IMG/VR virus record: IMGVR_UViG_2879759574_000001
DNA from: a virus
Taxonomy: Duplodnaviria; Heunggongvirae; Uroviricota; Caudoviricetes
Length of the DNA stretch: 20,169 nt
Reading direction: 5' to 3' (one strand)
A model generated the notes under the pieces. The model made no database searches. It worked only from the letters and a program-made list of their open reading frames with translations, and was not told the DNA's origin. The position numbers were made by a program, and so were the translations under genes. Below, in pieces: positions 859 to 20,169 of this stretch; position 1 is the first letter of the stretch; every line of letters begins with the position of its first letter.

Positions 859-880
859 GTTGGAGTCATTACCCAAGTAA

Positions 881-905
881 ATAAAAACCCGCTCAACAGC
901 GGGTT
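881..905 (-). terminator. rho-independent terminator (tR'-like) downstream of the Q-like gene
   Basis: On the minus strand AACCCGC-TGTTGA-GCGGGTT followed by TTTAT; lies about 45 nt downstream of the predicted promoter at 952-980. Confidence 0.55.
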
Positions 906-951
906 CGTGAAAATTATCAACGGCAGACATACAAAGCCCATCGTTGAGAAA

Positions 952-980
952 ATCTTATCCATGTTTTTTGAAAAATGCAA
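952..980 (-). promoter_or_regulatory. sigma70-like promoter immediately downstream of Q (pR'-like late promoter candidate)
   Basis: Minus strand reads TTGCAT-17 nt-TAAGAT (plus-strand ATGCAA at 975-980, ATCTTA at 952-957); position between Q stop and a terminator mirrors the lambdoid pR'/qut/tR' arrangement. Confidence 0.4.
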
Positions 981-1011
981 GCTTCATGTCGCCATCTTCG
1001 GCGAAAATCAC

Positions 1012-1764: not shown

Positions 1765-1824
1765 GCTCGTTCTCCACTTACGCCAGTACGCCTATTGCCA
1801 GCGCACGATCGATAAAACGAAATA

Positions 1825-2730
1825 TCAGCTCCAGCTGGGAACCATACTTCTCTTCAAATGCCACGGTATCCGCATGCAGCTCGTCGTGATGCTTTCTGCA
1901 CAAAGGCAACACAAAGAGGTCATGCGCTTTTGTACCCATTCCCCCTGACCGTGGCCTATCAGGTGGAGGGGATCATCAGCAGGCTTTCCACAACATGCAC
2001 ACGGCTGTGTCTTAACCCAGCGTGTGTACTTTTCATTAACCCAGCGGCGACGTTTTGGGCGTAACATAAAAGACTCCGGCGACTCCGGATCCACTTTCAG
2101 CGCCAGCACCTTTTTCACCTTATCCTGGATGATGCTGGTGGCAGGAACCGAAGGCACAAGGTCACTTTCCCGGGTGACAGACGGCACAACAGGCTTCGGT
2201 AATCTCAGTGCCTTACGGGCTGCACTTTCCGGTAAGGCATCCGCCAGGTCATTACGAATCAGCCACCAGCACAGTTCCGGCATTGTCACAACGTGACTAT
2301 CATCAAAACCGAGATCCCGACGCACAACAGACAACACCCAGCGGGCACAGTTATCCGTTGCCATTGATTCCAGCCGTTCCGTGAACTGATCGCGCAGCTG
2401 GTTATCGCAGTGCCAGCACAGACGGATTGCGCCCGGCGCGTGTCGCATTGTTGTCATGTTCTCGCTGTGCCAGTCGGAATGAGGCCACTGGCAGCCTTTT
2501 TCACGAAGTAACCAGCTTTCAAGACATTCCACGCCACCAGCACGACGGATCACTGCCTCATTGCGGAACACGGCCCGAACGTCAGGATCATCCGCCAGCG
2601 GTTGTGATGCCGCCGGAACAGCACCACTGGCGAAAGATGAATAACGTTCCGGCTCAGGCTCCAGCAGGACACGCCCCTGCATAAACAGGGGCATCAGCTC
2701 TGAACCTGGTCTGAACAATACGATCCCCAT
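1825..2730 (-). CDS. DUF968 (YdfU-like) prophage protein
   Basis: 301-aa ORF directly upstream of the Q-like gene as ydfU is in Qin-type prophages; C-terminal Cys/His-rich segment (CACCGKP...HLIGHGQ) consistent with DUF968; the C-terminal tail may be frameshifted. Confidence 0.4.
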   Translation of the reverse strand: MGIVLFRPGSELMPLFMQGRVLLEPEPERYSSFASGAVPAASQPLADDPDVRAVFRNEAVIRRAGGVECLESWLLREKGCQWPHSDWHSENMTTMRHAPGAIRLCWHCDNQLRDQFTERLESMATDNCARWVLSVVRRDLGFDDSHVVTMPELCWWLIRNDLADALPESAARKALRLPKPVVPSVTRESDLVPSVPATSIIQDKVKKVLALKVDPESPESFMLRPKRRRWVNEKYTRWVKTQPCACCGKPADDPLHLIGHGQGEWVQKRMTSLCCLCAESITTSCMRIPWHLKRSMVPSWS

Positions 2731-2771
2731 ACGCGGGCAATTTCAGGGGCAGTAGTGCTCTCACGGTCACC

Positions 2772-2975
2772 TCAATGAACGGTATCGAGCAGCTTTAACA
2801 GCTCAGGGAATCGGGATTCGAAGAAATGCGGCTGCGTCTCACGCGGATTTGCGGGACTGGTGATATTCTTGCCGAACATGCAGCCTTTCGCTGTCAGCGA
2901 CCAGAATTTTTTGATGTTGTTAATCGCTGTACGGCTGTATCGTTCGCGCTGTTCGACGATCCCCAGCTTCGCCAT
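2772..2975 (-). CDS. hypothetical 67-aa protein (possibly the displaced C-terminal segment of the upstream KilA-N gene)
   Basis: ORF only; sits in a different frame immediately downstream of the KilA-N ORF, whose own tail looks non-protein-like. Confidence 0.25.
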   Translation of the reverse strand: MAKLGIVEQRERYSRTAINNIKKFWSLTAKGCMFGKNITSPANPRETQPHFFESRFPELLKLLDTVH

Positions 2976-3031
2976 CTGGTGATATGCCTGATTAGCCGTA
3001 AGGCGGATACCATACTGCTTCAGCAGTGCAC

Positions 3032-3568
3032 TCAGTGACAGCGTGGGCGGCTTGAGCCATCAGGCGCGTCAGCAGGAGCATCAATGGCATAGCGCGGTGC
3101 CAGATTCGGTAAGCCAACAGCCTCCTGGAGTTTCTGACAGGCTCCAAGCACTGAAGAGTTAGACAGGTTTAATTCCCGGCGCATAAAGTCCAGCAGAATC
3201 ACACCAGCCTGCATCTTGTCAGCAGCCTGTCCGGATAATTTTTCCGGTGCACTGGTTACCATGTCGAAAGTACGGATCACCTTCAGATGGAATGACGGGC
3301 TGATCCACATTGCATAGGCATACACCAGTTCTTTGCAGACATACGTCCCTTGGTTATTTCCGCCACGAATAACGTTAACTGGTTCTATATTGACCGAGTT
3401 GCAAATCTGCAACTCGCTTATTAAACGTTCAGTTTGCTCATTGCGGAGCCAGAATGCAGGCTTATGCTTATCCAGAGAACCAGCAGCCCTGTGCAGATCG
3501 TTCAGGCTGTAACGCCCATAAGCATCACGACGAACTTCAATTCCATCAATAACCATCAGATTATTCAT
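3032..3568 (-). CDS. KilA-N domain protein (Roi/antirepressor-like)
   Basis: N-terminus MNNLMVIDGIEVRRDAYGRYSLNDLHRAAG...KPAFWLRNEQTERLI...YAYAMWISPSFHLKVIRTFD fits the KilA-N DNA-binding domain signature. Confidence 0.5.
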   Translation of the reverse strand: MNNLMVIDGIEVRRDAYGRYSLNDLHRAAGSLDKHKPAFWLRNEQTERLISELQICNSVNIEPVNVIRGGNNQGTYVCKELVYAYAMWISPSFHLKVIRTFDMVTSAPEKLSGQAADKMQAGVILLDFMRRELNLSNSSVLGACQKLQEAVGLPNLAPRYAIDAPADAPDGSSRPRCH

Positions 3569-3587
3569 ACTTCGTTTCTCCTCTTAA

Positions 3588-3977
3588 TCAGGCTGCTGCA
3601 CCCGCCGGTTTCTCGTACTTACTGATAGTGATCTCGACCTTCCCTTCCGGGATAACCGGTCCCCACTCCACCAGCATTCTTTTCACCTGACTGTCGTCTT
3701 CCCACACACCCGCGTGGGTCAGGGCGTCAAACAGCGCCTTGTTATAGTTGTTCAGATCGCGGATCCGGTTATCCGGAGGAAACAACACGATCTCCACTGA
3801 AGCAGGTGCCGACGTTGGTTTTGGCAGACGACGTAACTGCTCAACTATTGCTGCACACGCCGCGCTCTGGAATTTGCGCCCCGCTGCGCTTATCAGGCTC
3901 TTACCAGCAAACGCCCCTTTGTTGGGGTGTCGCCAGTACGTGTTCACGCTGGGCGGAAAAGGCAGTATTAGCTTCAT
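3588..3977 (-). CDS. rusA: RusA-family Holliday junction resolvase
   Basis: LPFPPSVNTYWRH...RDLNNYNKALFDALTHAGVWEDDSQV matches the RusA motif pattern (LPWPPS.N.YYRH...RDLDN..KA.FDALT.AG.W.DD.QV); start overlaps upstream stop (ATGA). Confidence 0.85.
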   Translation of the reverse strand: MKLILPFPPSVNTYWRHPNKGAFAGKSLISAAGRKFQSAACAAIVEQLRRLPKPTSAPASVEIVLFPPDNRIRDLNNYNKALFDALTHAGVWEDDSQVKRMLVEWGPVIPEGKVEITISKYEKPAGAAA

Positions 3978-4300
3978 ACTTTCAGGCCCCTCTCATGTAA
4001 CCAGTGGGCTGCACGCAGCTTGGCGTTTTCCTCACCGGCAAGCAGTGAGCGGATAATCCCGACCGCCTCGCTGTCGTCGTCCTTCACCGCGGTATGAAGA
4101 GTGATACCACGGGCCACACCACGCTTTATCGTGATGACGCCTTTTTTCTCCAGTGCTCTAAGATGCTCCACCGCTGCATTCACTGAACGGTATCCCAGCA
4201 TGGTTGCCACCTCCTGATTGGTTGGCGGGAAGCCACGTTCTTTCTGGTAAGAAATCAGCATATCCAGCACCTGCTGCTGGCATTGAGTTAACGTCGTCAT
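3974..4300 (-). CDS. LexA N-terminal DNA-binding-domain-like protein without S24 peptidase domain (108 aa)
   Basis: LTQCQQQVLDMLISYQKERGFPPTNQEVATMLGYRSVNAAVEHLRALEKKGVITIKRGVARGITL aligns at roughly 40 percent identity to my recollection of the E. coli LexA N-terminus ([65 protein letters not shown]); protein ends about 40 aa later with no Ser/Lys protease domain. Confidence 0.6.
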   Translation of the reverse strand: MTTLTQCQQQVLDMLISYQKERGFPPTNQEVATMLGYRSVNAAVEHLRALEKKGVITIKRGVARGITLHTAVKDDDSEAVGIIRSLLAGEENAKLRAAHWLHERGLKV

Positions 4301-4950
4301 GCCGCCATCTCCCTGACAAGTTTTTCTGCCTGCTGGCGAACTTGCGCCAGAAAGGCCTCACCACATGCCTCAAGTTCATCGCGCCCGATGTAGCTGATTG
4401 CCGGTCCCTTCCAGGTCTTGTCGAAAACGGCAATAGCACCAGCGAAGAAAGCACCGGTTGGCACCTGCTTCTCGTCTTTCGGGATAAACCAGGCAGGCAG
4501 TTCAAAACCAATACGCCCGCGAATAAAAGCAATATGATCCGCATCTTCCGGCCACCACACTTCGCTGGTGGCAGCTTTGATCAGGAAAACATAGCGCCCG
4601 CCCTTATCACGCATGGCACTGGCATGTTTCATGATGTAACGCATGCCGGTGATGTATTGCCCCTCATGCTGACTGGCGCGGCTGTATGGAGGATTTCCAA
4701 AGGCAGCACCTTTAAGCTCCGCAAGACGTTCTGACCAGTCATGCGCCAGCGCGTTGTCTTCCGCCGTGTAATACGCGGCACATTTGGCGTTATCACCGTC
4801 AGTAAACAGATCCAGAACAAACGGGCCAAACAGGGTGTTAATTCCCCAGAAAATGTTGTCCGGTGTGCGCCACTGATCGCCCACTTCCTTCAGTTCATGG
4901 GCTGGTTTGTTTCGCAACTCCACCAGCGCCTGGCAATATTTATTACTCAT
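4297..4950 (-). CDS. phage N6-adenine DNA methyltransferase (Dam family)
   Basis: FGNPPYS motif (NPPY catalytic signature), QWRTPDNIFWG N-terminal motif typical of phage Dam; preferred start is ATG at 4950 (MSNKYCQ), overlapping the upstream stop (TAATG); the track start at 4983 is a GTG. Confidence 0.75.
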   Translation of the reverse strand: MSNKYCQALVELRNKPAHELKEVGDQWRTPDNIFWGINTLFGPFVLDLFTDGDNAKCAAYYTAEDNALAHDWSERLAELKGAAFGNPPYSRASQHEGQYITGMRYIMKHASAMRDKGGRYVFLIKAATSEVWWPEDADHIAFIRGRIGFELPAWFIPKDEKQVPTGAFFAGAIAVFDKTWKGPAISYIGRDELEACGEAFLAQVRQQAEKLVREMAA

Positions 4951-5438
4951 TAAGCCCCCACGTAATTCCCTGACAGATACCACTCATCACCCGATACAGC
5001 GCGCTTGCTGCTTTTCCGTAAGCACCGCTCACGACGCGCCAGAAAATTGTTTCGTTCTGGCTGGGAGTGGCTTTCACGGAATGCCGCCATCCACACCGTT
5101 GCAGCACGACGGTATAAGCCCCTGGACTCCAGTTCTTCAGCCTGGCGGGTCAGGCACAAAATCACCCGGGGATCGTTAGTGCCGACATAGAAATTGCGCA
5201 CAGGTCTGGTTTCTCGAACTGATTGTGGTCCCGGTTCCTGCGCTCTCTCAGTCAGGCGCGGGAAATGTCTGCGTGTATCTCCTTCACAACGGTGAGCCAC
5301 ACGCCCACTCTGACGTAACTTGCTTGCAGACTGCAGAACGCGCTGCCGTGAGTAACCTGCAAAAGCATCCGCAATGTCTCCGGAAGTACACCCCGGATGG
5401 GCTTCAATGAATTTCTGAACGTCATTCAAAAGACTCAT
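4950..5438 (-). CDS. YfdN-like protein with C-terminal PerC-like motif (163 aa)
   Basis: Start set at ATG 5438 (MSLLNDVQKF...); the longer track ORF has a low-complexity N-extension overlapping the rep gene. C-terminal AEELESRGLYRRAATVWMAAF shares the PerC-type motif with the ORF at 9181-9462. Confidence 0.45.
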   Translation of the reverse strand: MSLLNDVQKFIEAHPGCTSGDIADAFAGYSRQRVLQSASKLRQSGRVAHRCEGDTRRHFPRLTERAQEPGPQSVRETRPVRNFYVGTNDPRVILCLTRQAEELESRGLYRRAATVWMAAFRESHSQPERNNFLARRERCLRKSSKRAVSGDEWYLSGNYVGA

Positions 5439-6006
5439 GCTCACCCCTGAATCCTGCCGGGATCTGGCTGTAGTCCACGTTGTCGTAACTGGCTTTGAAG
5501 TACGGGTCTTCACGTTTTTCTGTGTGCGTGCAGACGGACGGCGATAAGCGCAGGGAAAGCTCATCCCATTTTTCCCGCAACTTCGACGGGCTGAGCACGT
5601 TACGGCACCAGAACGGATCGCGGCTGACGCGGCTGTACATCTCGCAGATTTGTTTGTGAGTACGGCCATCCTGTACACACATCAGGCGAATTTCGTTTGC
5701 CCAGGCTGTCCAGTTCGGTTCTTTGGGACGAACCACCTCGCCGTCACATTCGGCAGCCTGCTCGTACAGGGCGATGATTTTTTTCCAGAGCCACTGTGCG
5801 CAGGTCAAATCATCCTGCGTCCCCCACTGGCGCTTTTTAGGGCTGAATACAACCGCATCAGGATGGCGAGTTAAAAAATCCTGTTCAGCCGTCTGCGTGT
5901 CCGGTTGCGAAGCGTCCGGACGAGAAGGTTTTTTATCTGACGGATCATGTTTTGATTTTACTGACGGATCCCCGCCAGATTCTGACGGGTGAAAACCCGC
6001 TTTTTT
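5422..6006 (-). pseudogene. 3' portion of phage replication-initiation gene, separated from its 5' portion (13478-13860) by IS66
   Basis: Frame continues in phase from 13860 across the 8-bp duplication: ...SKSGKKA | GFHPSESGGDPSVKSKHDPSDKK...; the track start at 6021 is a TTG inside the IS66 end. Confidence 0.65.
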
Positions 6007-6043
6007 GTAAGCGTGCAGCAAGAACCGTATTGACGGGGATGTG

Positions 6044-7580
6044 TTATTCAGTCGGCAGTGCTACGCGCCAGGGGAGCAGTTCGCCGACCCGGTTTATCGG
6101 CCAGTCGGCTATGACGTCAAGTACATAGCGGAGGTAGCTTTCTGGCTCCACTCCGTTCAGTTTGCACGTCCCGATCAGGCTGTACAGCAGCGCTCCCCGC
6201 TCTCCTCCATGATCCGAACCGAAGAACAGGTAGTTTTTGCGGCCCAGACTGACCATCCGCAACGCATTTTCAGCGATGTTATTGTCCGCCTCAGCCCAGC
6301 CATCATCTGCATAGTACGTCAGCGCCGGCCACTGGTTCAGGGCGTATGCGAACGCTTTCGCCAGTTCTGAGTGTCGCGACAGGGTTTTCATCTTTTCACG
6401 CAGCCAGCTTTCCAGGGATTTCAGCAGCGGTTTCGTTTTCAACTGACGTTCGGCAAGGCGCTGCTCCGCCGTCATTCCCCTTATCTCTGCCTCGATGGCG
6501 TACAGTTCGCCGATCCGTTTCAGCGCTTCCTCCGTCAGGGCTGACGGGGTGCGAACGTGCACATCGTGGATTTTACGGCGGGCGTGAGCCCAACAGGCGG
6601 CTTCCGTTATCCGGCCATCCCGGTACAGCTCGTTGAACCCGGCGTATGCATCCGCCTGCAGTACACCACTGAACCCCGCAAGATGGGTCTGCGGATGGAT
6701 GCCTTTTCTGTCCGGGCTGTAAGCGAACCACACCGCCGGCGCCAGCGTTGACCCGGCGTTACGGTCGTCACGAACGTAGGTCCATAACCGCCCGGTCTTC
6801 GTTTTCTTATTGCCTGGCAACAGCACCGGGACAGGCGTGTCATCAGCATGGAGCTTACCGTCAGTCAGCACATAGTCCTGAAGCGCTTCTTCCAGCGGTG
6901 ACAGTAGCCGGCAGCATGCATCCACCCAGCCCGACAGCAGTGAACGACTCAGCTCCACGCCCTGGCGGCCGTACATTTCAGACTGGCGGTACAGCGGGGT
7001 GTGCTCTGCATACTTTGAGATCAGCACGCGGGCCAGCAGCCCCGGTCCTGCGATACCCCGCTCGATGGGCCGTGAAGGCGCGGGGCCTGCACGATGGCAT
7101 CGCACTGAGTACAGGCATGCTTTTCACGTACAGTCCGGATAACCCGGAAGACGCTGCGCATCAACTCCAGCTGTTCGGCGGCATCCTCACCCGGATAGCT
7201 CAGTGAGCCTCCACATTCCGGGCAGCATGACGCTGCCGGCAGCAGCCGTTTTTCATCGCGGGGGAGTGATTCGGGAACGGTTTGCGGGTGCGGGTTTGAC
7301 GCAGCGGGCGCTGCACGGCCGGGTCGTCAACCCGACCGGTAAGGGTATCACTTTCTTTCTGAAGTGCCTTCAGGTCAGCTTCCATCTGTGCGATACGACG
7401 GGAGACTTTTTCGGAGCGGCTGCCGAAGTTCATCCGGCGCAGCTTATCCAGCTGTGCCTGCAGATGGTCTATTTCGCGTTCACGCTCGTTCAGCTTTTCC
7501 AGCAGGGCACGGTTCAGCGCCTCCTGTTCGGCAAGGAGACGTTTCAGTGCATTGATATCGTCAGGAAGTGAGCTGCTCAT
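6044..7580 (-). pseudogene. IS66 tnpC (transposase) disrupted by two 1-bp deletions
   Basis: Split into ORFs 7200-7580 and 6044-7105; compared with intact copy 2, one G/C is missing in the homopolymer run at 7273-7275 and one in the run at 7082-7085. Confidence 0.8.
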
Positions 7581-7628
7581 ACCGGGTATATTACCAGGCT
7601 CATTCAGCGTCGACCAGGATAAAGAGGC

Positions 7629-7976
7629 TTACAACATAGTCAGGGACGTAAGCAGTCTTTTAGGCTGCCGCCAGTCGATACCTTCAAGGAGCATCGCCAG
7701 CTGTGCCGGTGTGAGGAACACTTTGCCATCCCGGGCTGACGGCCAGGCGAAGCGGCCGCGCTCCAGCCGTTTGGTCAGCAGACACAGTCCATCGCCGGTA
7801 GACCAGAGGAGCTTTACCTGACTGCCATTACGCCCACGGAAGATAAAAACGTGACCTGACATCGGATCGTCTTTCAGCGTCGTCTGCACCTTTGCCGCCA
7901 GGCCGTTGAAGCCATTTCTCATATCGGTGATACCGGCAACCAGCCAAATTTTGGTCCCGGAAGGTAACGGGATCAT
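7629..7976 (-). CDS. IS66 TnpB (Orf2), 115 aa
   Basis: Identical protein to ORF 14329-14676; typical IS66 orf2 position with ATGA overlap to tnpA. Confidence 0.85.
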   Translation of the reverse strand: MIPLPSGTKIWLVAGITDMRNGFNGLAAKVQTTLKDDPMSGHVFIFRGRNGSQVKLLWSTGDGLCLLTKRLERGRFAWPSARDGKVFLTPAQLAMLLEGIDWRQPKRLLTSLTML

Positions 7977-8374
7977 CGCTTCAGTTCCTGTATCAGCAGA
8001 GTCAGGAGCTTTTCGCTGACATTGCCATTGAAGCGGAGCGTCCCGTGCCGGAACGTTACCTCACAGCTGATACTGAGGGTTTCCGGATCCTCTGCGAGCG
8101 ATTCTGGCTGTTCGGCAGCTGCATCGAGAGTCACAGGAAGTAGCTGGGGGCTCTCTGAAGAAGGTAATAGCAGCTTTCCCTCGCGCCATTGTTGTCGCCA
8201 TTTGAACAACAGATTGGCGTTAATGCCATTTTCAAGAGCAAGTTTTGAGATGGATATCCCGGGTTCACAGGAGGCAGCAACGAGCTGCTGTTTAAATTCG
8301 GGAGGATAATTAGGGCAGCCTTTTCGCCTGCCGGGATTCACATTTTTCTGCATATCTGACACTTTGGTTCCCAC
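7973..8374 (-). CDS. IS66 TnpA (Orf1), 133 aa, intact in this copy
   Basis: 133-aa ORF; the copy-2 counterpart is broken into 80-aa and 78-aa ORFs by a 1-bp deletion. Confidence 0.8.
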   Translation of the reverse strand: MGTKVSDMQKNVNPGRRKGCPNYPPEFKQQLVAASCEPGISISKLALENGINANLLFKWRQQWREGKLLLPSSESPQLLPVTLDAAAEQPESLAEDPETLSISCEVTFRHGTLRFNGNVSEKLLTLLIQELKR

Positions 8375-8465
8375 TACTTATTTGGTGGACACCACTTTGT
8401 CTAATTCGTCAGATTCTGACCAGACGGTTCAGGCTGTACGCTTACTTTCCAATGGGCACTCATGT

Positions 8466-8909
8466 TTATACGCTGACCTTACAATCAATCACCGCTTTTA
8501 AATTTTCAGCATTGCTTCCCTGACGCTTCCACGCGCTGTAAATATCTTTATCCCACGCTTTACCAGCTTTTGTTTGATAGCCTGCTTCATTGATCCGTTC
8601 AGCTATCACACGCCCATTATCAAATCCCTGTTGGATGGTATCGGCAATGATCTTTATAACTGCCGTTTCGTTATATGGCTTTGGTGGGATGTTCGGCTTT
8701 CCGGCAATAAGCGACGCAGCGGCTTTTTCCATGCGCTCCACCAGCCCAAGCATTCGTGAATCAATAGACTTTTCCGGCTGTCCCAGCTTCATGCGAATCG
8801 CATCAACAAGCCAGGAGGTTTTATCCCCTCCAGAAGCGAGAACAGACCGATTAAACTCATCCTGCAATTCAGATGGGATGCGGAACGCGATCAGATTAGA
8901 TTTGCTCAT
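8466..8909 (-). CDS. hypothetical DNA-binding protein, putative ribbon-helix-helix N-terminus
   Basis: MSKSNLIAFRIPSELQDEFNRSVLASGGDKTSWLVDAIRMKL has a strand-helix-helix pattern like Arc/CopG-type RHH; divergent from the iteron array and PerC-like gene; start ambiguous (ATG 8921 or 8909), weak RBS. Confidence 0.35.
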   Translation of the reverse strand: MSKSNLIAFRIPSELQDEFNRSVLASGGDKTSWLVDAIRMKLGQPEKSIDSRMLGLVERMEKAAASLIAGKPNIPPKPYNETAVIKIIADTIQQGFDNGRVIAERINEAGYQTKAGKAWDKDIYSAWKRQGSNAENLKAVIDCKVSV

Positions 8910-8940
8910 TGCAAAGACCATATCAGTGAGTAATATCCAT

Positions 8941-8970
8941 ACAGTATACCACTGTATAACACTGTTATAC
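8941..8970. repeat. three tandem ~10-bp repeats ACAGTATAC / CACTGTATAA / CACTGTTATAC in the promoter region of the RHH-like gene
   Basis: Direct reading of sequence; half-site-like CTGT/ACAG elements but not a canonical CTGT-N8-ACAG LexA box. Confidence 0.3.
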
Positions 8971-9022
8971 GCTCAAATATCAGCCAGAAAATAACGGACC
9001 AATCACAAAGCTATCGCTGTGT

Positions 9023-9145
9023 TGTTGGTTCAGAGCTGGGCTGTGTTGGTTCAAAATGAGTTGATGTTGGTTCAATATTTTAGAAAAAACATAATAAAAA
9101 CAACGATCTTTACAAATTGAACCAACTGAACCAACTGAACCAACA
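9023..9145. repeat. iteron array: 3 direct TGTTGGTTCA repeats at 21-bp spacing, AT-rich spacer, then 3 tandem inverted copies TGAACCAAC
   Basis: Direct copies at 9023-9032, 9044-9053, 9065-9074; inverted copies at 9118-9126, 9127-9135, 9136-9144; the inverted set overlaps the -35 region of a TATAAT (9162-9167) upstream of the PerC-like gene. Confidence 0.6.
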
Positions 9146-9180
9146 CCTTTTTGCTTATCTATATAATCTGAGAGGCAGAA

Positions 9181-9462
9181 ATGATAAGGGACAGGAAAGC
9201 TGAAGAGCTGGAGTCAAAAGGGCTATACCGGAGAGCTGCCGCACGATGGATGGAAGTCATGCTGTTATGCACCGAGGACGATGATCGGGAATGGATAAAG
9301 CGCCGCCGTGAAACGTGTCTGGAGAACGTGAAGCGCCCGCCCGTGAAGGTTGAGGAATTTGGCGACCTGCATAAAGCTGTTACCGAAACGCAACACCGCA
9401 TGGGGATAGCGCAACCGAACGGTAACGCCTTCCGGTTAAATGGCGGCAAGAGGCAAAGGTAG
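9181..9462 (+). CDS. PerC-family transcriptional activator-like protein (93 aa)
   Basis: MIRDRKAEELESKGLYRRAAARWMEVML...RRRETCLENV matches the PerC/Pch signature as I recall it; good RBS (GAGAGG) before ATG. Confidence 0.5.
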   Translation: MIRDRKAEELESKGLYRRAAARWMEVMLLCTEDDDREWIKRRRETCLENVKRPPVKVEEFGDLHKAVTETQHRMGIAQPNGNAFRLNGGKRQR

Positions 9463-9758
9463 ACCACCAGAGGGAAATCATCCTCTGGCTGGCGGTTTCT
9501 GGTATTTCGGGACAAGTACGCGCGCGCGTAGCACCCAATCGGTGAGGAAATAGCGGCGACCTGAATGGTCAAAATCACAACGCAGCTATCCCCGTAAGCA
9601 GCGCTTAACGGAATAGCAGTAACCTGAATCCAGTGGGGAGGGGGTAGTCAAATCTCTACAGCCCTGACTATCCGGGACTGCCCGCCCATCGTTTTTTTAT
9701 ACCCGCGAAAAATGAAATTTAATCCGGGCGTGTTTCATCCTTCCAGAGGGTATGACGT

Positions 9759-9944
9759 ATGACACCACGCGAAATAGCCTTATTGACCATCGCCAAACTT
9801 GAGCACGGAGGCCACCAGCTTACACAGGCAGATCAACGGGAGATAGAACGATCAGTTAATGCCGATATAGCCCGGCGCGACAGGTTCCGCGAAATGATGC
9901 GAGCACCTGCCTACCAGTGGAAGAAGCCAGCGCCGCGCAGGTAG
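9759..9944 (+). CDS. hypothetical 61-aa basic protein
   Basis: ORF with possible RBS AGAGGG upstream; no recognisable motif. Confidence 0.25.
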   Translation: MTPREIALLTIAKLEHGGHQLTQADQREIERSVNADIARRDRFREMMRAPAYQWKKPAPRR

Positions 9945-10064
9945 ATATGGGATTATTCCACATGTACCTTATGCGTATTAAGCAAATTTCCTTTATTCAC
10001 CTTTACAGAATTGTGAGTACGTCAGTATCGTTATCCTTCCGATTCGCATTTATTCAGGATTTGC

Positions 10065-10607
10065 ATGTACCAGCTAAAGATAACCATCCGAGACAGCAAA
10101 CCACCTATATGGCGGCGTGTGCTGGTTCCAGAGCAAATCCCCTTTAGTAAACTTCATGCCGTGATCCAGTTAGCTTTTGGCTGGAATGACGAACACCTGT
10201 ATATGTTCGAGAAAGGGCGTAAAGGTGATCCAGGTAGCGAGTATCGCGTATGGGGTGAGGATGAAAGCATGGGTAACGCGGCAATCACGCCACTATGGGC
10301 GGCGCTCCAGAATGAGGGTGACAAGCTGGTTTACACGTATGACTTTGGCGACTGGTGGGATTGCGTCATTGTGCTGGAGAAGCAAACACACGATACGAGT
10401 AATCAGCCCATTAGCTGCCTGCGTGGGAAAGGCACCACCCCGGCGGAAAACTCAGGCGGCTTGCATGGTTACAATGAATTGCTATTACAGGCCAGAGAGT
10501 CTGATAATCCTGAGCAGGCCGAGATCCACAATTTCCTGATGCTGGATATTGAACGCCGGGTTTACGACCTGAGCCGCATCAACGACAGATTGCAGGCTAT
10601 TAACTGA
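10065..10607 (+). CDS. pRiA4b ORF-3-like family protein (180 aa)
   Basis: N-terminus MYQLKITIRDSKPPIWRRVLVPEQIPFSKLHAVIQLAFGWNDEHLYMF matches the characteristic start of the pRiA4b ORF-3-like family (YxLKxTL...PPIWRR..VP...F.DLH..IQ...GW...HL.F); RBS AGGA present. Confidence 0.6.
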   Translation: MYQLKITIRDSKPPIWRRVLVPEQIPFSKLHAVIQLAFGWNDEHLYMFEKGRKGDPGSEYRVWGEDESMGNAAITPLWAALQNEGDKLVYTYDFGDWWDCVIVLEKQTHDTSNQPISCLRGKGTTPAENSGGLHGYNELLLQARESDNPEQAEIHNFLMLDIERRVYDLSRINDRLQAIN

Positions 10608-10959
10608 CCCGCATGTATTCACCTGATATTGCGTTGTCAGCGCCGCCAGTATCGCGCATAACAGCGCACTGACCGGGTAAACCGTAGCGCACGACCGTTG
10701 CGTTAGTATCACCGCCGCGCCGTATCTGGCGCGATTCATACACTGTCACCCGCTCAAGCAGTCCACCAGCAACCATGCTTTCCAGTGTGCGCCGGGTTGA
10801 TTCGAGCTGGTGACGCTTATCGAACGACACCATGCCATGAAGCAGGTAGGCCACACCCGACACATCGAACGGCGGCGCACCAATCTCACCAGTCACCCAT
10901 TCGAGGTTATCCGGTTCAAAGTAGCTAAGTATCTCTTTTTTGCGACTGGTCATTCTCAT
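10600..10959 (-). CDS. hypothetical 119-aa protein, convergent with and overlapping the pRiA4b-like gene by 8 nt
   Basis: ORF with RBS AAGGA; segment RTLESMVAGGLLERV could be a winged-helix recognition element, but that is unverified. Confidence 0.3.
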   Translation of the reverse strand: MRMTSRKKEILSYFEPDNLEWVTGEIGAPPFDVSGVAYLLHGMVSFDKRHQLESTRRTLESMVAGGLLERVTVYESRQIRRGGDTNATVVRYGLPGQCAVMRDTGGADNAISGEYMRVS

Positions 10960-11187
10960 GGCTGGCTGATTCCTTATTGTGGGATAGCACTATCATACAA
11001 TAAGTGGGTTAAAGGGAGAGCGTTACCGCCTGATATGCTGTATGAATAACAACCAAATTTCAGGGGCGGAAAAAGATATGGGGGTACTTTTGGGGGTATC
11101 TATAAAAAATGAACAATAAAAAAGGCAACAAAAACAAAGCTTATCGCCTATGTGTATTGTTCCCATTATCCCATTTAAATCAATAAG

Positions 11188-11691
11188 TTACACATCATTA
11201 GTACGTTCCTTATTTCTTGACTGGGACAAATTTGGGACCGATGGGTTCAGAATCGAGTCTATTTGCCGTGCGTGTTCGGTAAGGTGATTAGGTGCGAGGT
11301 GAGCATATCGACGAACCATTTCGATAGACTCCCAGCCTCCCATTTCCTGTAACACTGATAACGGGACTCCGGCTTGAACCAGCCAACTTGCCCAGGTGTG
11401 TCTCAAGTCGTGAAATCTGAAATCATCAATACCTGCTCGTCTCAGCGCCGCTTTCCAGGCTGTGTTTGCGTCATACCGCATCTTCCTGACTGTTGGCGCT
11501 TTCGTTCCGTCTGGTTTGGTACAGCTTTCCTTATACACAAATACCCAACGGTGATGATTCCCGATTTGTTTTTTCAATACGCGACATGCAGTATCATTCA
11601 GCGCAACGCCAATTGCGCGGTTTGATTTACTCTCTTCCGGGTTTATCCATGCCACCCGGTGAGGTGTACTGGCAATAGCGGACACTACCAT
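11188..11691 (-). pseudogene. tyrosine recombinase (phage integrase), C-terminal catalytic half only
   Basis: Contains HDLRHTWAS (His-x-x-Arg box) and VRRYAHL (catalytic Tyr); the N-terminal roughly 200 aa expected for an integrase are absent and the ORF abuts an IS3-family fragment. Confidence 0.75.
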
Positions 11692-11699
11692 TTGTTCTT

Positions 11700-12221
11700 T
11701 TTTTAAGCAGCCATCTGATGATATTTTTCCCTGAAGGCTGCCGGGGAGATATTCCCCAGACGAGAGTGACGACGCTGACGATTGTAGAAAATCTCAATGT
11801 ATTCCCGTATTACTGAGATGGCTTCATCCCGGTTATTAAAACGATAGTGGCTCAGGCTCTCATTTTTCAGCGTCCCCAGAAGCTTTCCATCGGAGCGTTG
11901 TCGTAACAGTTACCTTTACGCGACATTGATGTTTTCAGACCAGACTGCTCCTGTATGACCCGGTAATCGTATGCGCAGTACTGTGAACCTCGATCAGAGT
12001 GGTGGATTAGCCCGGCAGGTGGGCGCTGGCTCCTGAGCGCCATAAACAGGGCTTTACCTGTCAGCTCTTTTGTCATGCGCTCTCCCATGGCGTAGCCGAC
12101 AATTTCGCACGTATAAACATCTTTGATGCCAGCGAGGTACAACCATCCCTCCTGTGTGGCAACATACGTCAGGTCCGCCACCCAGACCTGATTTGGTGCT
12201 GTAGGAGCGAACGTCTGGTTC
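11700..12221 (-). pseudogene. IS3-family (IS407-group-like) transposase OrfB, 3' fragment with internal frameshift, truncated by IS911
   Basis: ...HHSDRGSQYCAYDY...MSRKGNCYDNAPMESFW then, in another frame, [56 protein letters not shown]; the 5' side ends exactly at the IS911 left end (12222). Confidence 0.6.
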
Positions 12222-12293
12222 TGAAGTGGCACACTGAATTTGGCCACCTGAACAGAGGTGATATGCTCACCTCAGAACAACACAGGTGCTCCA

Positions 12294-13861
<1,568 letters not shown>

Positions 13862-13931
13862 TAAGCGTACAGCCTGAACCGTCTGGTCAGAATCTGACGA
13901 ATTAGACAAAGTGGTGTCCACCAAATAAGTA

Positions 13932-14332
13932 GTGGGAACCAAAGTGTCAGATATGCAGAAAAATGTGAATCCCGGCAGGCGAAAAGGCTGCCCTAATTAT
14001 CCTCCCGAATTTAAACAGCAGCTCGTTGCTGCCTCCTGTGAACCCGGGATATCCATCTCAAAACTTGCTCTGAAAATGGCATTAACGCCAATCTGTTGTT
14101 CAAATGGCGACAACAATGGCGCGAGGGAAAGCTGCTATTACCTTCTTCAGAGAGCCCCCAGCTACTTCCTGTGACTCTCGATGCAGCTGCCGAACAGCCA
14201 GAATCGCTCGCAGAGGATCCGGAAACCCTCAGTATCAGCTGTGAGGTAACGTTCCGGCACGGGACGCTCCGCTTCAATGGCAATGTCAGCGAAAAGCTCC
14301 TGACTCTGCTGATACAGGAACTGAAGCGATGA
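13932..14332 (+). pseudogene. IS66 tnpA with 1-bp deletion
   Basis: CTTGCTCTGAAAATGG here versus CTTGCTCTTGAAAATGG in copy 1; ORF split into 13932-14174 and 14096-14332. Confidence 0.75.
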
Positions 14333-14676
14333 TCCCGTTACCTTCCGGGACCAAAATTTGGCTGGTTGCCGGTATCACCGATATGAGAAATGGCTTCAAC
14401 GGCCTGGCGGCAAAGGTGCAGACGACGCTGAAAGACGATCCGATGTCAGGTCACGTTTTTATCTTCCGTGGGCGTAATGGCAGTCAGGTAAAGCTCCTCT
14501 GGTCTACCGGCGATGGACTGTGTCTGCTGACCAAACGGCTGGAGCGCGGCCGCTTCGCCTGGCCGTCAGCCCGGGATGGCAAAGTGTTCCTCACACCGGC
14601 ACAGCTGGCGATGCTCCTTGAAGGTATCGACTGGCGGCAGCCTAAAAGACTGCTTACGTCCCTGACTATGTTGTAA
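14329..14676 (+). CDS. IS66 TnpB (Orf2), 115 aa
   Basis: Identical to 7629-7976. Confidence 0.85.
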   Translation: MIPLPSGTKIWLVAGITDMRNGFNGLAAKVQTTLKDDPMSGHVFIFRGRNGSQVKLLWSTGDGLCLLTKRLERGRFAWPSARDGKVFLTPAQLAMLLEGIDWRQPKRLLTSLTML

Positions 14677-14724
14677 GCCTCTTTATCCTGGTCGACGCTG
14701 AATGAGCCTGGTAATATACCCGGT

Positions 14725-16263
14725 ATGAGCAGCTCACTTCCTGACGATATCAATGCACTGAAACGTCTCCTTGCCGAACAGGAGGCGCTGAACCGTGCCC
14801 TGCTGGAAAAGCTGAACGAGCGTGAACGCGAAATAGACCATCTGCAGGCACAGCTGGATAAGCTGCGCCGGATGAACTTCGGCAGCCGCTCCGAAAAAGT
14901 CTCCCGTCGTATCGCACAGATGGAAGCTGACCTGAAGGCACTTCAGAAAGAAAGTGATACCCTTACCGGTCGGGTTGACGACCCGGCCGTGCAGCGCCCG
15001 CTGCGTCAAACCCGCACCCGCAAACCGTTCCCCGAATCACTCCCCCGCGATGAAAAACGGCTGCTGCCGGCAGCGTCATGCTGCCCGGAATGTGGAGGCT
15101 CACTGAGCTATCCGGGTGAGGATGCCGCCGAACAGCTGGAGTTGATGCGCAGCGTCTTCCGGGTTATCCGGACTGTACGTGAAAAGCATGCCTGTACTCA
15201 GTGCGATGCCATCGTGCAGGCCCCCGCGCCTTCACGGCCCATCGAGCGGGGTATCGCAGGACCGGGGCTGCTGGCCCGCGTGCTGATCTCAAAGTATGCA
15301 GAGCACACCCCGCTGTACCGCCAGTCTGAAATGTACGGCCGCCAGGGCGTGGAGCTGAGTCGTTCACTGCTGTCGGGCTGGGTGGATGCATGCTGCCGGC
15401 TACTGTCACCGCTGGAAGAAGCGCTTCAGGACTATGTGCTGACTGACGGTAAGCTCCATGCTGATGACACGCCTGTCCCGGTGCTGTTGCCAGGCAATAA
15501 GAAAACGAAGACCGGGCGGTTATGGACCTACGTTCGTGACGACCGTAACGCCGGGTCAACGCTGGCGCCGGCGGTGTGGTTCGCTTACAGCCCGGACAGA
15601 AAAGGCATCCATCCGCAGACCCATCTTGCGGGGTTCAGTGGTGTACTGCAGGCGGATGCATACGCCGGGTTCAACGAGCTGTACCGGGATGGCCGGATAA
15701 CGGAAGCCGCCTGTTGGGCTCACGCCCGCCGTAAAATCCACGATGTGCACGTTCGCACCCCGTCAGCCCTGACGGAGGAAGCGCTGAAACGGATCGGCGA
15801 ACTGTACGCCATCGAGGCAGAGATAAGGGGAATGACGGCGGAGCAGCGCCTTGCCGAACGTCAGTTGAAAACGAAACCGCTGCTGAAATCCCTGGAAAGC
15901 TGGCTGCGTGAAAAGATGAAAACCCTGTCGCGACACTCAGAACTGGCGAAAGCGTTCGCATACGCCCTGAACCAGTGGCCGGCGCTGACGTACTATGCAG
16001 ATGATGGCTGGGCTGAGGCGGACAATAACATCGCTGAAAATGCGTTGCGGATGGTCAGTCTGGGCCGCAAAAACTACCTGTTCTTCGGTTCGGATCATGG
16101 AGGAGAGCGGGGAGCGCTGCTGTACAGCCTGATCGGGACGTGCAAACTGAACGGAGTGGAGCCAGAAAGCTACCTCCGCTATGTACTTGACGTCATAGCC
16201 GACTGGCCGATAAACCGGGTCGGCGAACTGCTCCCCTGGCGCGTAGCACTGCCGACTGAATAA
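14725..16263 (+). CDS. IS66 TnpC transposase, intact (512 aa)
   Basis: Uninterrupted 512-aa ORF with N-terminal coiled-coil/leucine-zipper region and CxxC...CxxC zinc motif (CCPECGG...CTQCDA). Confidence 0.85.
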
Positions 16264-16300
16264 CACATCCCCGTCAATACGGTTCTTGCTGCACGCTTAC

Positions 16301-16382
16301 CGATATCCTCGATATAAATATCGTCAATGGTGGAGTTGATATAATTGAACTTCTTACCGGTAAGAGTCTGGATAAAACTCAT
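16301..16382 (-). pseudogene. 5' stub (first 27-28 codons, MSFIQTLTGKKFNYINSTIDDIYIEDI) of an unknown gene truncated by the IS66 right end
   Basis: Strong RBS AAGGAGA 7 nt before ATG at 16382; frame runs directly into the IS66 inverted repeat. Confidence 0.35.
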
Positions 16383-16539
16383 CGTTAGTTCTCCTTAATT
16401 GGTGCGCTGCACCGCACGATTTTTGGTTGCACGAATCCCTCGCCATAAGGCGATTAAAAGTTTTGGTTTCGTTTCAGTAAATGCCCCATCCAGAGGCACT
16501 TAGTGCAACGGGCGGCTGCCATCGCCAGTTATTTTCCCC

Positions 16540-16624
16540 ACTCAATTGAAAGCGCGTTCCGGAGGTTTTGGACTTAACGAACTGGCACTTAATGACAAGG
16601 GACAGAACGCGCTTTCAGTTGAGT
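16540..16624. repeat. 20-bp inverted repeat (19/20 match) separated by a 45-nt spacer
   Basis: Left arm ACTCAATTGAAAGCGCGTTC (16540-16559), right arm GAACGCGCTTTCAGTTGAGT (16605-16624); not followed by a T-tract on either strand. Confidence 0.5.
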
Positions 16625-16775
16625 AAAAAGGTGGCTATTCATCAGAACATTGTCGCCTTCATTAGGTTTATCTGTTGAAGATCTGTAAGCCGCTTATAAA
16701 TAAGTAGATATAAGATATTAGGAAAAGAAGAAGGACGTTATAGTTTTATTTGTGATGTGCAAAGTATATTTGAAT

Positions 16776-16796
16776 AGAACCCGCCCAGCGGGTTCT
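16776..16796 (-). terminator. 9-bp GC-rich stem-loop overlapping the stop codon of the 201-aa gene (weak terminator candidate)
   Basis: AGAACCCGC-CCA-GCGGGTTCT; no clear U-tract afterwards. Confidence 0.3.
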
Positions 16797-17400
16797 AAAG
16801 TGTTTTAATGATTGTCGTGATAATTAATTGGCTCATCATTTTTTGGTCTGGTATAGTTATGGACCACTTTATATTCTTTAGGCTGTTATGTTTTTTATTG
16901 ACCTTAAGCTCTCTCTTTGCTTCAGAGATAATATCGTCTAGTAATACTTTTAATTTATCAAGTCTTGACTTGTGGGCATCTATCAACTCTATACTATCAA
17001 ACTCCCATTGTATAAATAGATTTTCTTCATTTTCAATGAATGAACGGATTTTATCCCCACACTCTTCTGTTAAGAATAATGAAGATAGCTCACCTATTCT
17101 ACTGAGTTTTTCAAGCTCATTAGAGAAAGATTTGCTAAGGATTTCATTTTCTTCTTTTGATTTGTAACTAAAGTAGGTTGGGAATTGTGAAGCGTGATGT
17201 AACTCATGTTTATACCAATAGTCAGCTGTGTTTTTTAGAAGATAAACACAGTCAACTAATTGCGTATACAAATCTATTCTTTTGTCCCACCATTTTTCTT
17301 TATAATAACGGCCGAGTGCATATCGCGCAGTTAAGTAAGCTGCGATTGAGCCTGTAACAAGTCCGATAATTACCTTTGATATAAGGTCATGCCAATCCAT
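16795..17400 (-). CDS. hypothetical membrane-anchored protein (201 aa, one N-terminal TM helix, AT-rich)
   Basis: ORF MDWHDLISKVIIGLVTGSIAAYLTARYAL... has a single hydrophobic helix followed by a charged, Lys/Glu-rich soluble region; codon usage and base composition are clearly more AT-rich than neighbours; RBS AGGA. Confidence 0.5.
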   Translation of the reverse strand: MDWHDLISKVIIGLVTGSIAAYLTARYALGRYYKEKWWDKRIDLYTQLVDCVYLLKNTADYWYKHELHHASQFPTYFSYKSKEENEILSKSFSNELEKLSRIGELSSLFLTEECGDKIRSFIENEENLFIQWEFDSIELIDAHKSRLDKLKVLLDDIISEAKRELKVNKKHNSLKNIKWSITIPDQKMMSQLIITTIIKTL

Positions 17401-17852
17401 TTTTATTTTTCCTACATTATGTTATATAATTGTTCATATCATACAATTGTTGAGTATAGATGTCTCGTTATTCATCAACATTTACTCCTGTTAAATTAGG
17501 GGGAGTATGTATTAAAAATATTCATCTGGGTCGTCTAAATATTTTTGATAAACTAATAGCAATAACACTATCAGTATTGCCTGCCCTCACGTCGTTCTTG
17601 CTCTCGCGCGATTTTTAACTAAACACTAGCAGGATTTATCATGGTGCTACGCTACATTTACTTGTAGGGAGCTAAACAGATCATTGACGCTGAAAATATT
17701 CAAATTGTTAAAGAGCGAAGCGTCCTATGGGCGTTTTGTTGCTAACGAATCATCTTGGACTTCATATGCTCCAGGCGGCTACTTCGTGGGCATCCTGCCT
17801 GTTTGTTGTTTCGTTTTGGTACATTGTGTGTCCATGGGTACATTGTCAAGTA

Positions 17853-17876
17853 TAAAAAAACCTGCCGAAGCAGGTT
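17853..17876 (-). terminator. rho-independent terminator downstream of the cI-like gene
   Basis: Minus strand AACCTGC-TTCG-GCAGGTT followed by TTTTTTTA. Confidence 0.6.
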
Positions 17877-17888
17877 CATAAATATTGA

Positions 17889-18563
17889 TTAGGCCTTTAT
17901 TTTGTATCTTCTTGGTTTTCCCGAGAAAATCACAGTGCCAATTATAGAGCAATTACCGTTAATCTTAATGTAGGGCTCAGGCCAGTTTGGGTGTAATGCT
18001 TTGAGATAACGCTGTGTTCCATCTTCTATCAATCGCTTGAAGGTGATTTCGCCTGTATCGTGCATCAACGCAATAACGTCGTCACCGTGGCAAGCAGGGA
18101 CTTCAGGATCAACAAAAATCATGTCTCCCGGACGGTACTCATCAATCATTGAATCACCAATCACCCGCAAGATATAAGTCATTTCGCCACAGGGTACAGG
18201 GCAGGGATAAGTTTCTGCTGTGCTCAAATCAACCTCAGAATAGCCAACTTCTTTCCATGCTCCGGCCTGTACCCATGATATGACAGGGACTAACGTTATT
18301 TGTTTGTTAGTGATTGAAACATCAGGTTTTTTTGTGATGTTCGTTGTCTGGTGTTCTTGATCGAGCCATCCGATAGGCAAGTCGAAACATTTTTCAATGT
18401 GTCGTGCCATGCTGTCACCGATATTTTTAGTAGCACCATCTCCCATAAACCTGCTGGTCTGGGTTGGCTCGCGATCAATCATAGTGGCAAAGGAAGAATT
18501 CCCGCCAACACCATCTCTCAGTTTTCTGGCGTTAGACCGCCGGATGTCATGGATTGTTTTCAT
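17889..18563 (-). CDS. CI-like phage repressor with C-terminal S24 (LexA-type) peptidase domain
   Basis: C-terminal half has VIGDSM (catalytic Ser) and FKRL (Lys) with ...GDMIFVDPE...; N-terminus resembles phage CI HTH domains; divergent from a Cro-like gene. Confidence 0.8.
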   Translation of the reverse strand: MKTIHDIRRSNARKLRDGVGGNSSFATMIDREPTQTSRFMGDGATKNIGDSMARHIEKCFDLPIGWLDQEHQTTNITKKPDVSITNKQITLVPVISWVQAGAWKEVGYSEVDLSTAETYPCPVPCGEMTYILRVIGDSMIDEYRPGDMIFVDPEVPACHGDDVIALMHDTGEITFKRLIEDGTQRYLKALHPNWPEPYIKINGNCSIIGTVIFSGKPRRYKIKA

Positions 18564-18580
18564 AACGAAATTAAAACCCT

Positions 18581-18647
18581 TGTACCGCTAAGGTACAAGT
18601 ATCTTGAAGGTTCATTTCAATCATGTAACATGTACACTTGAGGTACA
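18581..18647. promoter_or_regulatory. divergent cI/cro control region with two TGTAC-N7-GTACA palindromic operator candidates
   Basis: TGTACCGCTAAGGTACA (18581-18597) and TGTACACTTGAGGTACA (18631-18647) lie between the cI start (18563) and cro start (18654). Confidence 0.45.
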
Positions 18648-18653
18648 TATTGT

Positions 18654-18854
18654 ATGAAAGCGTATTGGGACTCTTTAACCAAAGAACAGCAGGGTGAGTT
18701 GGCCGGAAAAGTTGGCTCAACACAAGGCTACTTACGGCTGGTTTTCAATGGCTATAAAAAAGCCAGTTTTGTGCTGGCTAAAAAACTTGAGCAATGCACG
18801 TCAGGTGCAATTACGAAATCTGACTTAAGACCGGATATCTATCCGAAAGATTAG
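18654..18854 (+). CDS. Cro-like small HTH regulator (66 aa)
   Basis: Position divergent from cI; STQGYLRLVFNGYKKASFVLAKKLEQCTSGAITKSDLRPDIY resembles Cro/YdaS-type proteins. Confidence 0.55.
   Translation: MKAYWDSLTKEQQGELAGKVGSTQGYLRLVFNGYKKASFVLAKKLEQCTSGAITKSDLRPDIYPKD

Positions 18855-19794: not shown

Positions 19795-20169
<375 letters not shown>

Follow-up and report, generated by a model that had tools for sequence, protein, structure and literature searches.

Several small membrane proteins of phages and prophages, namely lactococcal Sie2009, HK97 gp15, P22 SieA and T4 Imm, act singly as blockers of injection. Some small injection blockers are encoded next to the repressor and work alone at the inner membrane, and in HK97 gp15 and Sie2009 the bulk of the protein lies outside the cytoplasm. 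SieB of lambda and P22 (PF14163) is an exclusion protein of the abortive-infection type encoded close to the leftward early promoter (PL) and next to N; in 1993, Ranade and Poteete reportedly described it as membrane-associated and as having its own promoter, active in lysogens. Lambda RexAB comprises two genes that lie between cI and PL and are co-transcribed with cI from PRM. Here we describe a gene in a comparable region of a tailed-phage sequence of 20,169 nucleotides (IMG/VR record IMGVR_UViG_2879759574_000001), referred to as the window, which means this stretch at its full length. The gene (the family gene) is a 201-codon open reading frame (ORF) next to a cI-type repressor gene, and its product is predicted to be a membrane protein. 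A sequence-only reading of the window had proposed it as a prophage exclusion or defence gene. We find that the gene, its promoter and its terminator form a cassette of about 0.75 kb that, judged by its sequence, is a classical moron encoding an orphan protein. The host prophage is of the SfV/e14 type (E. coli/Shigella-type), riddled with insertion sequences (IS) and cryptic.

The locus compares with these systems in different ways. Like lambda RexAB, the family gene is an accessory function of the immunity region close to cI; unlike RexAB it is a single gene, lies past the cI terminator, PL and nutL, and its product has no PADLOC match to RexA or RexB. SieB and the family protein are both prophage-encoded, measure about 185-200 amino acids, and are encoded near PL and next to N, whereas the lambda record has sieB on the strand opposite to N and the family gene is co-oriented with PL. 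Homology to SieB was considered and rejected: PF14163 gave no match at E<=1 (lambda SieB itself scores 1e-29), and hhalign of the 69-member family profile against lambda SieB returned a probability of 0.15%. Compared by description only, the family protein differs from HK97 gp15 and Sie2009 in that its charge distribution places its bulk in the cytoplasm. By analogy, its mode of action would be nearest to that of SieB or of the small Sie proteins from lysogeny modules, although it does not belong to the SieB family. In regulatory layout, the locus is comparable to the pL-nutL-N region of phi80. The leader with boxA and core hairpin is common to phi80 and the window; in phi80 it is followed by N, whereas in the window and in four related prophages (L007, L008, L012 and L016) it is followed by the membrane-protein cassette instead.

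The features of a moron in the sense of Hendrix and colleagues are all found at the level of the sequence, namely a promoter of its own, a terminator of its own, deviant composition and presence or absence among close phages. The predicted promoter (Table 1) has hexamers of the form (G/A)AGACA and TAT(G/A)(A/G)T at a distance of 17 nucleotides, and these are kept in six divergent loci whose spacer sequences are unrelated. A promoter scanner found the site independently in L004 (with TATAAT), L007 and L008, and the same hexamers occur in L012 and L016. Seven of nine contexts examined have a GC-rich hairpin terminator after the family gene's stop codon; the terminators of L004, L012, L020, L034, L008 and E. 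coli ECONIH4 are canonical, with hairpin and T-run. The U-tract of the window's terminator is imperfect (UUCUAUUC) and that of ECONIH4 is better (UUUUAUUC). The G+C content is 33.3% in the ORF and 26% in its promoter region, against 44.6% in cI, 46.9% in cro-ymfL and 50.8% in the whole window, which bears out both the low G+C content relative to the flanking prophage genes and the moron status that had been read from it. Among 80 IMG/VR prophages with a 99-100% identical cI, five carry the family gene, as do 16 of 5426 complete E. coli genomes.

The product of the ORF belongs to phrog_17948, a PHROGs family of unknown function, which it matches over residues 1-185 of 185 profile positions (E 3.2e-94). 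This was the sole family matched in the profile search that the sequence-only reading had suggested, and all 69 aligned superfamily members match it as well. Because the ratio of nonsynonymous to synonymous substitution rates (dN/dS, Nei-Gojobori method, comparisons with unsaturated dS) is 0.09-0.21 between orthologues of different genera, the substitution pattern marks the family as a protein-coding gene under constraint and the ORF as real. The product has no match in Pfam, NCBIfam or PADLOC (the latter as PADLOC-DB v2.0.0, searched to E<=1), its 69 relatives have no Pfam match and only scattered, insignificant matches in PADLOC (E>7e-4), and a sequence search of the PDB with the family profile gave nothing significant (best E 0.008, in a coiled region). 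Literature searches for phrog_17948 and WP_001764244 returned nothing, a general search on prophage defence hotspots returned nothing on the family, and RefSeq labels the protein "hypothetical protein". The family is therefore one that has been catalogued already, yet is uncharacterised and without a domain model. Only ten clusters at 90% identity were found in a collection of 5.8 billion proteins, and those with a named source come from Escherichia, Citrobacter and Raoultella. When 1.84 billion cluster representatives were searched with the family profile, 365 clusters matched at E<=1e-3, the matches being full-length and 150-200 amino acids long.

The product is predicted to be a bitopic inner-membrane protein. 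The single N-terminal transmembrane (TM) helix named in the sequence-only reading is recovered, the best 19-residue Kyte-Doolittle window being residues 6-24 with a score of 1.71, and a hydrophobic N-terminal segment is present in 65 of the 69 superfamily members. Lys and Arg are commoner over the 15 residues that follow the TM helix than ahead of it in all 69 members, so that by the positive-inside rule the C-terminal part should be cytoplasmic and the topology N-out, C-in, with about five residues outside the membrane. The structure prediction that had been suggested alongside the profile search was run with AlphaFold2 on a 45-sequence alignment, and the mean predicted local distance difference test score (pLDDT) was 78.8. 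In the model, a helix of residues 3-70 that contains the TM segment and a stalk packs with helices 82-109, 112-134 and 139-178 to form a four-helix bundle, and residues 170-198 are disordered. The long charged helical tail of the sequence-only reading is thus correct as to helical content, and is modelled as a bundle. The interfacial motif of the window's protein is RYYKEKWWDKR, and the wider family is recognizable by an N-terminal hydrophobic helix, an interfacial ALxRFYxEKWWEKK and a C-terminal AKxxLKV. W38 is invariant, E35, K36 and W37 are nearly so, and Y45, A161 and L165 are also near-invariant; no conserved set of catalytic or polar residues suggestive of catalysis is visible in the family. 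In fold class, the modelled bundle resembles the 4HB_MCP ligand-binding domains of chemoreceptors, NarQ and QseE. These sensor bundles are periplasmic parts of large receptors, with 7-12% identity and no sequence similarity to the family protein, and de novo designed bundles score as well as they do. An i-spanin (Rz-like, N-in/C-out, with a periplasmic coiled coil and a gene in the lysis cassette with an o-spanin) was considered and rejected on the C-in charge bias of all 69 members, the compact bundle and the location of the gene beside cI.

The family gene occupies a recurrent position. In Enterobacteriaceae its occurrence is strictly confined to the immunity-proximal prophage region. In prophages of E. 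coli, Citrobacter and Raoultella and in metagenomic ones, it lies directly downstream of S24 repressors of at least four kinds, always in the orientation of the early-left operon. Comparison of these loci indicates that the position is conserved while the immunity type changes. In the window the gene is the first ORF after PL-nutL, the place held by N in phi80. The lambda-like prophage L020 has a homologue of 44% identity, placed between cIII and an N-like gene, the 89-amino-acid product of which ends in RGKSIPLI as lambda N does; this neighbourhood is near where the lambda record places sieB. The sequence-only reading had put the gene into the slot of rexAB or sieB. Its rexAB half fails, since the cI terminator, PL with its operator (OL) and nutL intervene, and its sieB half stands as a matter of vicinity. 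A role as an analogue of N was rejected in view of the TM helix, the absence of an arginine-rich motif, the extent of the family far beyond lambdoid phages and the separate N-like gene upstream in L020.

The survey of the cI-proximal slot that had been proposed was run over the 80 same-cI prophages and found the slot to be variable. Most often it holds an opposite-strand ORF of 242 amino acids, intact or split; otherwise it holds SfV orf33, this and the 242-amino-acid ORF together, nothing (YfdP-YfdQ-HD follow directly) or the family gene. A two-gene version of the slot with the family gene, which the sequence-only reading had envisaged, was not supported. Examples of the other occupants are L017 3756-4484 (PhiR29_1 XSB42132.1), L018 3584-4281 (SfIV_35 and SfIV_36, split) and L003 3678-3974 (SfV orf33). 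The 242-amino-acid ORF and SfV orf33 have no Pfam or PADLOC assignment and are further uncharacterised morons at the same site. The slot was also considered as a known defence hotspot and rejected as such: ten alternative occupants or neighbours had no PADLOC match, bar a weak one to PDC-S42. The latter, a candidate system, was matched (E 2.4e-5) by a 288-amino-acid DUF7946/DUF7947 protein encoded at the rex position of L020, between cI and PL (6397-7263). Gene 40A of phi80 (L037 1188-2054) has the same ORF length and the same place as this gene, a likeness of size and position.

Beyond the Enterobacteriaceae, the family is taxonomically broad but sparse. Among 100,044 species genomes (one genome per species), 49 loci with relatives were found, distributed over Gammaproteobacteria, Deltaproteobacteria, Planctomycetes, Verrucomicrobia, Bacillota, Deinococcota and candidate phyla. 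The family gene is a single-gene module, because no Pfam family recurs more than four times among the 229 flanking ORFs of distant homologues. Mobile-element neighbours of the distant members include integrases, Mu-like GemA and Mor, capsid, ERF and transposases. Neighbours of defence type comprise a type III restriction-modification system, two SNF2/HKD helicases, two OLD-TOPRIM/AAA_15 proteins, HipA and AAA_21; at single loci, one homologue adjoins Shedu SduA, another adjoins an Mrr-type nuclease, and another lies within a cluster of methyltransferase, helicase, SLFN-AlbA_2 and AAA_21 genes. This wider context is suggestive of an accessory, possibly defensive role. In Vreelandella maris, family members on two contigs of one genome (L073 and L076) lie in Mu-like prophages near GemA, Mor, a 3-TM holin and an M15 endolysin; because of these members, the family is not restricted to lambdoid immunity regions.

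It is hypothesized, with a probability of roughly 0.4, that the protein excludes superinfecting phages at the inner membrane or has another defence function. We favor this reading because of the position of the gene, the moron architecture, the accessory distribution and part of the distant gene context. In a lysogen, PL would be repressed and the family gene would be read from its own constitutive promoter, and the early-left genes would be shielded by the cassette terminator. After induction, Nus-modified RNA polymerase that started at PL could read through the cassette. The protein would be non-enzymatic and act where the inner membrane faces the cytoplasm, and superinfection exclusion could come about through interference with genome entry or with early membrane-associated steps. 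Alternatively, it may oligomerise and damage the membrane upon a trigger, as in abortive infection. A wider proposal is that these proteins are the enterobacterial-prophage branch of an undescribed, widespread family of single-gene, membrane-tethered four-helix-bundle anti-phage proteins that are non-enzymatic and reside in PL-nutL cassettes and, elsewhere, in defence islands; this we regard as tentative and rather unlikely.

Several points weigh against a role in exclusion. No homology to a known exclusion or defence protein was detected for the product in Pfam, NCBIfam and PADLOC, for its 69 relatives in Pfam and PADLOC, or by hhalign against lambda SieB. The predicted four-helix-bundle fold is uninformative about function. 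None of the alternative slot occupants in sister prophages is a known defence protein, and there is no guilt by association. Many neighbours of the distant homologues are housekeeping genes, and the defence adjacencies are raw counts that carry no background rate. The location downstream of PL-nutL could fit an early lytic gene equally. Finally, the gene appears dispensable in this lineage, because the window's copy is frameshifted and sister copies carry a nonsense mutation (Q47*) or an IS1 insertion.

The last point leads to the alternative that the window's copy is a decaying relic, an inert pseudogene in a cryptic, IS-scrambled prophage, which we consider an unlikely but serious contender. 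The intact protein, encoded by C3F40_RS11595 in E. coli ECONIH4, has 198 amino acids (WP_001764244.1) and ends in the 13 residues ...QKNDEPINYYDNH; intact relatives end in ...QKNDEPINY(Y/H)DNH. In the window, a 1-base deletion in an A-run (Table 1) has swapped the 13 native C-terminal residues for 16 unrelated ones (...QKMMSQLIITTIIKTL), and the stop codon of the family frame, TAA, would fall at 16805-16807. The ORF of 201 amino acids in the sequence-only reading is therefore present, but its length is not native, and as the alignments indicate, its product is a frameshift product. Sisters with a cI 99-100% identical to that of the window are also broken, two IMG/VR prophage copies carrying Q47* and a third an IS1 insertion after codon 44, and the databases contain four more alleles that are truncated or frame-switched (P0006, P0009, P0010 and P0012). 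Disrupted copies of the family gene lie at L032 3357-3953, L033 3932-4528 and L036 5836-5979. Damage also extends to the surroundings: the next gene is interrupted by IS66 and the right arm by an IS911-like element, and the left part of the window is rearranged. At PL, relatives have a 16-nucleotide spacer and CATAAT, whereas in the window a 1-bp deletion in the operator/spacer has made the spacer 1 nucleotide shorter and the -10 element reads CACAAT, a weakened version, so that the early-left promoter and operator of this lineage may be impaired. The window's PL variant, as compared with ECONIH4, PhiR29_1 and SfV, is also found in L032 and L036. Against inertness, the frameshift touches only the last 13 residues, which are modelled as disordered (pLDDT about 40) and are poorly conserved beyond the closest relatives, and the TM helix, motif, bundle, promoter and ribosome-binding site are identical to those of the intact ECONIH4 allele. 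The window's copy may be weakened or inactive. The varied disruptions could mean that the cryptic prophage lineage is decaying generally, or that the gene is costly and selected against.

Less probable still is that the family gene is an accessory gene of the PL operon that acts early in the lytic cycle on the host membrane or on membrane-associated factors and has no role in the lysogen. Lambda Kil and cIII provide models for such action. Position argues for it: the gene comes first of the ORFs behind PL-nutL, at the site of N in phi80, it is co-oriented with the early-left operon in every context, and the L020 copy stands between the N-like gene and cIII. 

The gap between cI and the ORF measures 488 bp and is strongly AT-rich (26% GC) only in the 154 bp nearest the ORF, the remainder having 40-44% GC. 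The sequence-only reading had described about 480 bp of AT-rich non-coding DNA; the size is right, the strong AT-richness applies to the 154 bp only, and the gap is full of regulatory elements. Leftward from cI, these are the cI terminator, the PL/OL-like promoter-operator, the phi80-type nutL and the gene's own sigma-70 promoter, and we read the gap as ordinary lambdoid regulatory DNA.

The repressor and terminator beside the ORF are as the sequence-only reading had them, with a Peptidase_S24 match and a hairpin and T7 directly after the gene. The repressor is the anchor of the immunity region and lies outside the cassette; its homologues are labelled cI or LexA family protein in SfV, SfIV, PhiR29_1 and E. 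coli genomes, and a terminator is annotated at the homologous place in SfV and Ayreon. The PL/OL-like site has TTGACA at 17849-17844 and TGTACC motifs at 17842-17837 and 17823-17818. These half-sites match the TGTACC-N5-GGTACA 17-bp palindromes of the cI-cro intergenic region (18581-18597 and 18631-18647), and phage Ayreon has a promoter annotated at the place of the site. Six divergent loci have kept the nutL leader ahead of the family gene. Related leaders lie at L007 7680-7850, L008 3254-3425, L012 1528-1700 and L016 518-690, and the L008 version matched 109 phage records by blastn, being 92% identical to phi80 DNA in which nutL boxA and nutL core are annotated and N comes next. The alignment of the window with phi80 pL-nutL starts at boxA, runs over about 150 nucleotides and gives way to divergence exactly where phi80 goes on to N; no N homologue was detectable in the window or in the four related prophages that carry the leader. 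RNAalifold predicts a pairing between boxA (GCTCTTT) and a GAGAGC further downstream that is invariant. Homology to PhiR29_1 and SfIV stops at boxA, which behaves as a mosaic junction. Three considerations count against a purely lytic role of the family gene. Its own conserved promoter 35-65 nucleotides upstream of the ATG and its own terminator would be needless in an operon; it is absent from 75 of the 80 same-cI prophages and hence not needed for the lytic programme; and distant members occur outside prophages.

A lysogenic-conversion or host-fitness factor with a non-defence role, for instance in envelope physiology, stress tolerance or a host membrane complex, is improbable. Moron architecture and patchy distribution would suit any accessory function, the fold resembles membrane-tethered sensor bundles, and many distant homologues have housekeeping neighbours. 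On the other side, there is no signal pointing to a metabolic or envelope pathway and no conserved neighbour, and the strict tie to the immunity-proximal prophage region in Enterobacteriaceae speaks against such a factor.

A two-gene system of the family gene and its IS66-disrupted neighbour is very improbable, as adjacency and shared orientation in the window and the 16 E. coli genomes are all that speak for it, and each gene is found without the other in many loci, 412 bp and a terminator separate them, and no family is recurrent among the 229 neighbours of distant homologues. The sequence-only reading had seen a neighbouring gene with a strong ribosome-binding site that is cut off by IS66, and this is confirmed, with a start at 16382, a good ribosome-binding site and about 27 codons. 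Similarity to the intact gene breaks off at 16301, and positions 16264-16300 match the element that adjoins the ORF of the IS66 transposase (14725-16263). Its further idea, that a partner gene may have been destroyed, is contradicted: the stub belongs to an HD hydrolase that is part of the early-left backbone (HD, EaE-like, YfdT-like, xis, int). The intact HD hydrolase gene (178 amino acids) is annotated in ECONIH4, VREC0761, SfV, SfIV and PhiR29_1. It occurs without the family gene in SfV, SfIV, PhiR29_1, Ayreon and most of the 80 same-cI prophages, and the family gene occurs without it in L004-L008, L012, L020 and L034 (Raoultella, Citrobacter and other prophages).

Table 1. Features of the cassette and of the DNA on either side of it, with positions in the window.
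Feature	Position	Strand	Basis
CI-type repressor, LexA/S24 family, ymfK-like, 224 amino acids	17889-18563	minus	Pfam Peptidase_S24 (E 6e-25), phrog_4
cI intrinsic terminator, hairpin GAACCTGC-TTCG-GCAGGTT, then T7	17850-17877	minus	Terminator scan
PL/OL-like leftward early promoter with operator half-sites	17818-17849	minus	Sequence reading; function inferred
phi80-type nutL leader	17555-17717	minus	boxA, core hairpin and conserved tail ending at about 17555
nutL boxA CGCTCTTTAACAA	17717-17705	minus	Alignment to phi80
nutL core hairpin CTACA-AGTAAA-TGTAG	17667-17652	minus	Compensatory changes among seven sequences
Predicted sigma-70-type promoter of the family gene, GAGACA (17466-17461), 17 nucleotides, TATGAT (17443-17438)	17438-17466	minus	Promoter scan
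Shine-Dalgarno sequence AGGA, 9 nucleotides upstream of ATG	17410-17413	minus	Sequence reading
Family gene ORF, 201 codons, ATG start	16795-17400	minus	Residues 1-185 phrog_17948 member, 186-201 out of frame
Frameshift site, A6 run (A7 in intact alleles)	16839-16844	minus	DNA alignment with E. coli ECONIH4 and protein alignment
Cassette terminator, GC-rich hairpin overlapping the stop codon	16775-16797	minus	Scan and folding, -16.2 kcal/mol
5' stub of HD-family hydrolase gene (SfV orf30 homologue), 27 codons, outside the cassette	16301-16382	minus	phrog_21461, phrog_318

Other elements near the cassette were also noted. A small leader ORF (MLMNNETSILNNCMI, 17482-17435) with AGGAG upstream is not conserved as an ORF in L012 or L004 and was treated as a chance occurrence. 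A search of Rfam with positions 16200-18700 gave nothing meaningful, the sole match being rsmX at E 0.92. Between the cassette terminator and the HD hydrolase gene there is a 20-nucleotide inverted repeat (16540-16559/16605-16624, 95% complementary, 45-nucleotide loop). Beside it, about 70 nucleotides (16622-16693) are 71-74% identical to DNA upstream of early-left genes in L007, L008 and L009. Judged by sequence, the repeat and the adjoining stretch may form a structured RNA or serve the early-left operon as a regulatory site.

The prophage as a whole is scrambled (window 1-16300 and 19831-20169). An IS66-family element at about 13.9-16.3 kb cuts the HD hydrolase gene, orfA of an IS3-family (IS911-like) element begins at 19831, shortly after ymfL, and the left 13 kb carry late-regulation genes (DUF968, KilA-N, an antiterminator and a Dam-like methylase) in the opposite orientation. 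The window as a whole was found in none of the complete E. coli genomes of the collection.

For the window itself the practical message is modest, in that the prophage is decayed, the copy is frameshifted and the gap is ordinary lambdoid regulatory DNA. The locus also shows a terminator-flanked cassette inside an early operon, directly behind a nut site, with boxA coinciding with a phage mosaic junction. Should the family prove to exclude phages, the defences of prophages would gain a membrane protein that is very small, encoded by a single gene and non-enzymatic. A family without a domain model, ranging from Enterobacteriaceae to Planctomycetes and bacteria of candidate phyla, would then have a name and a testable function.

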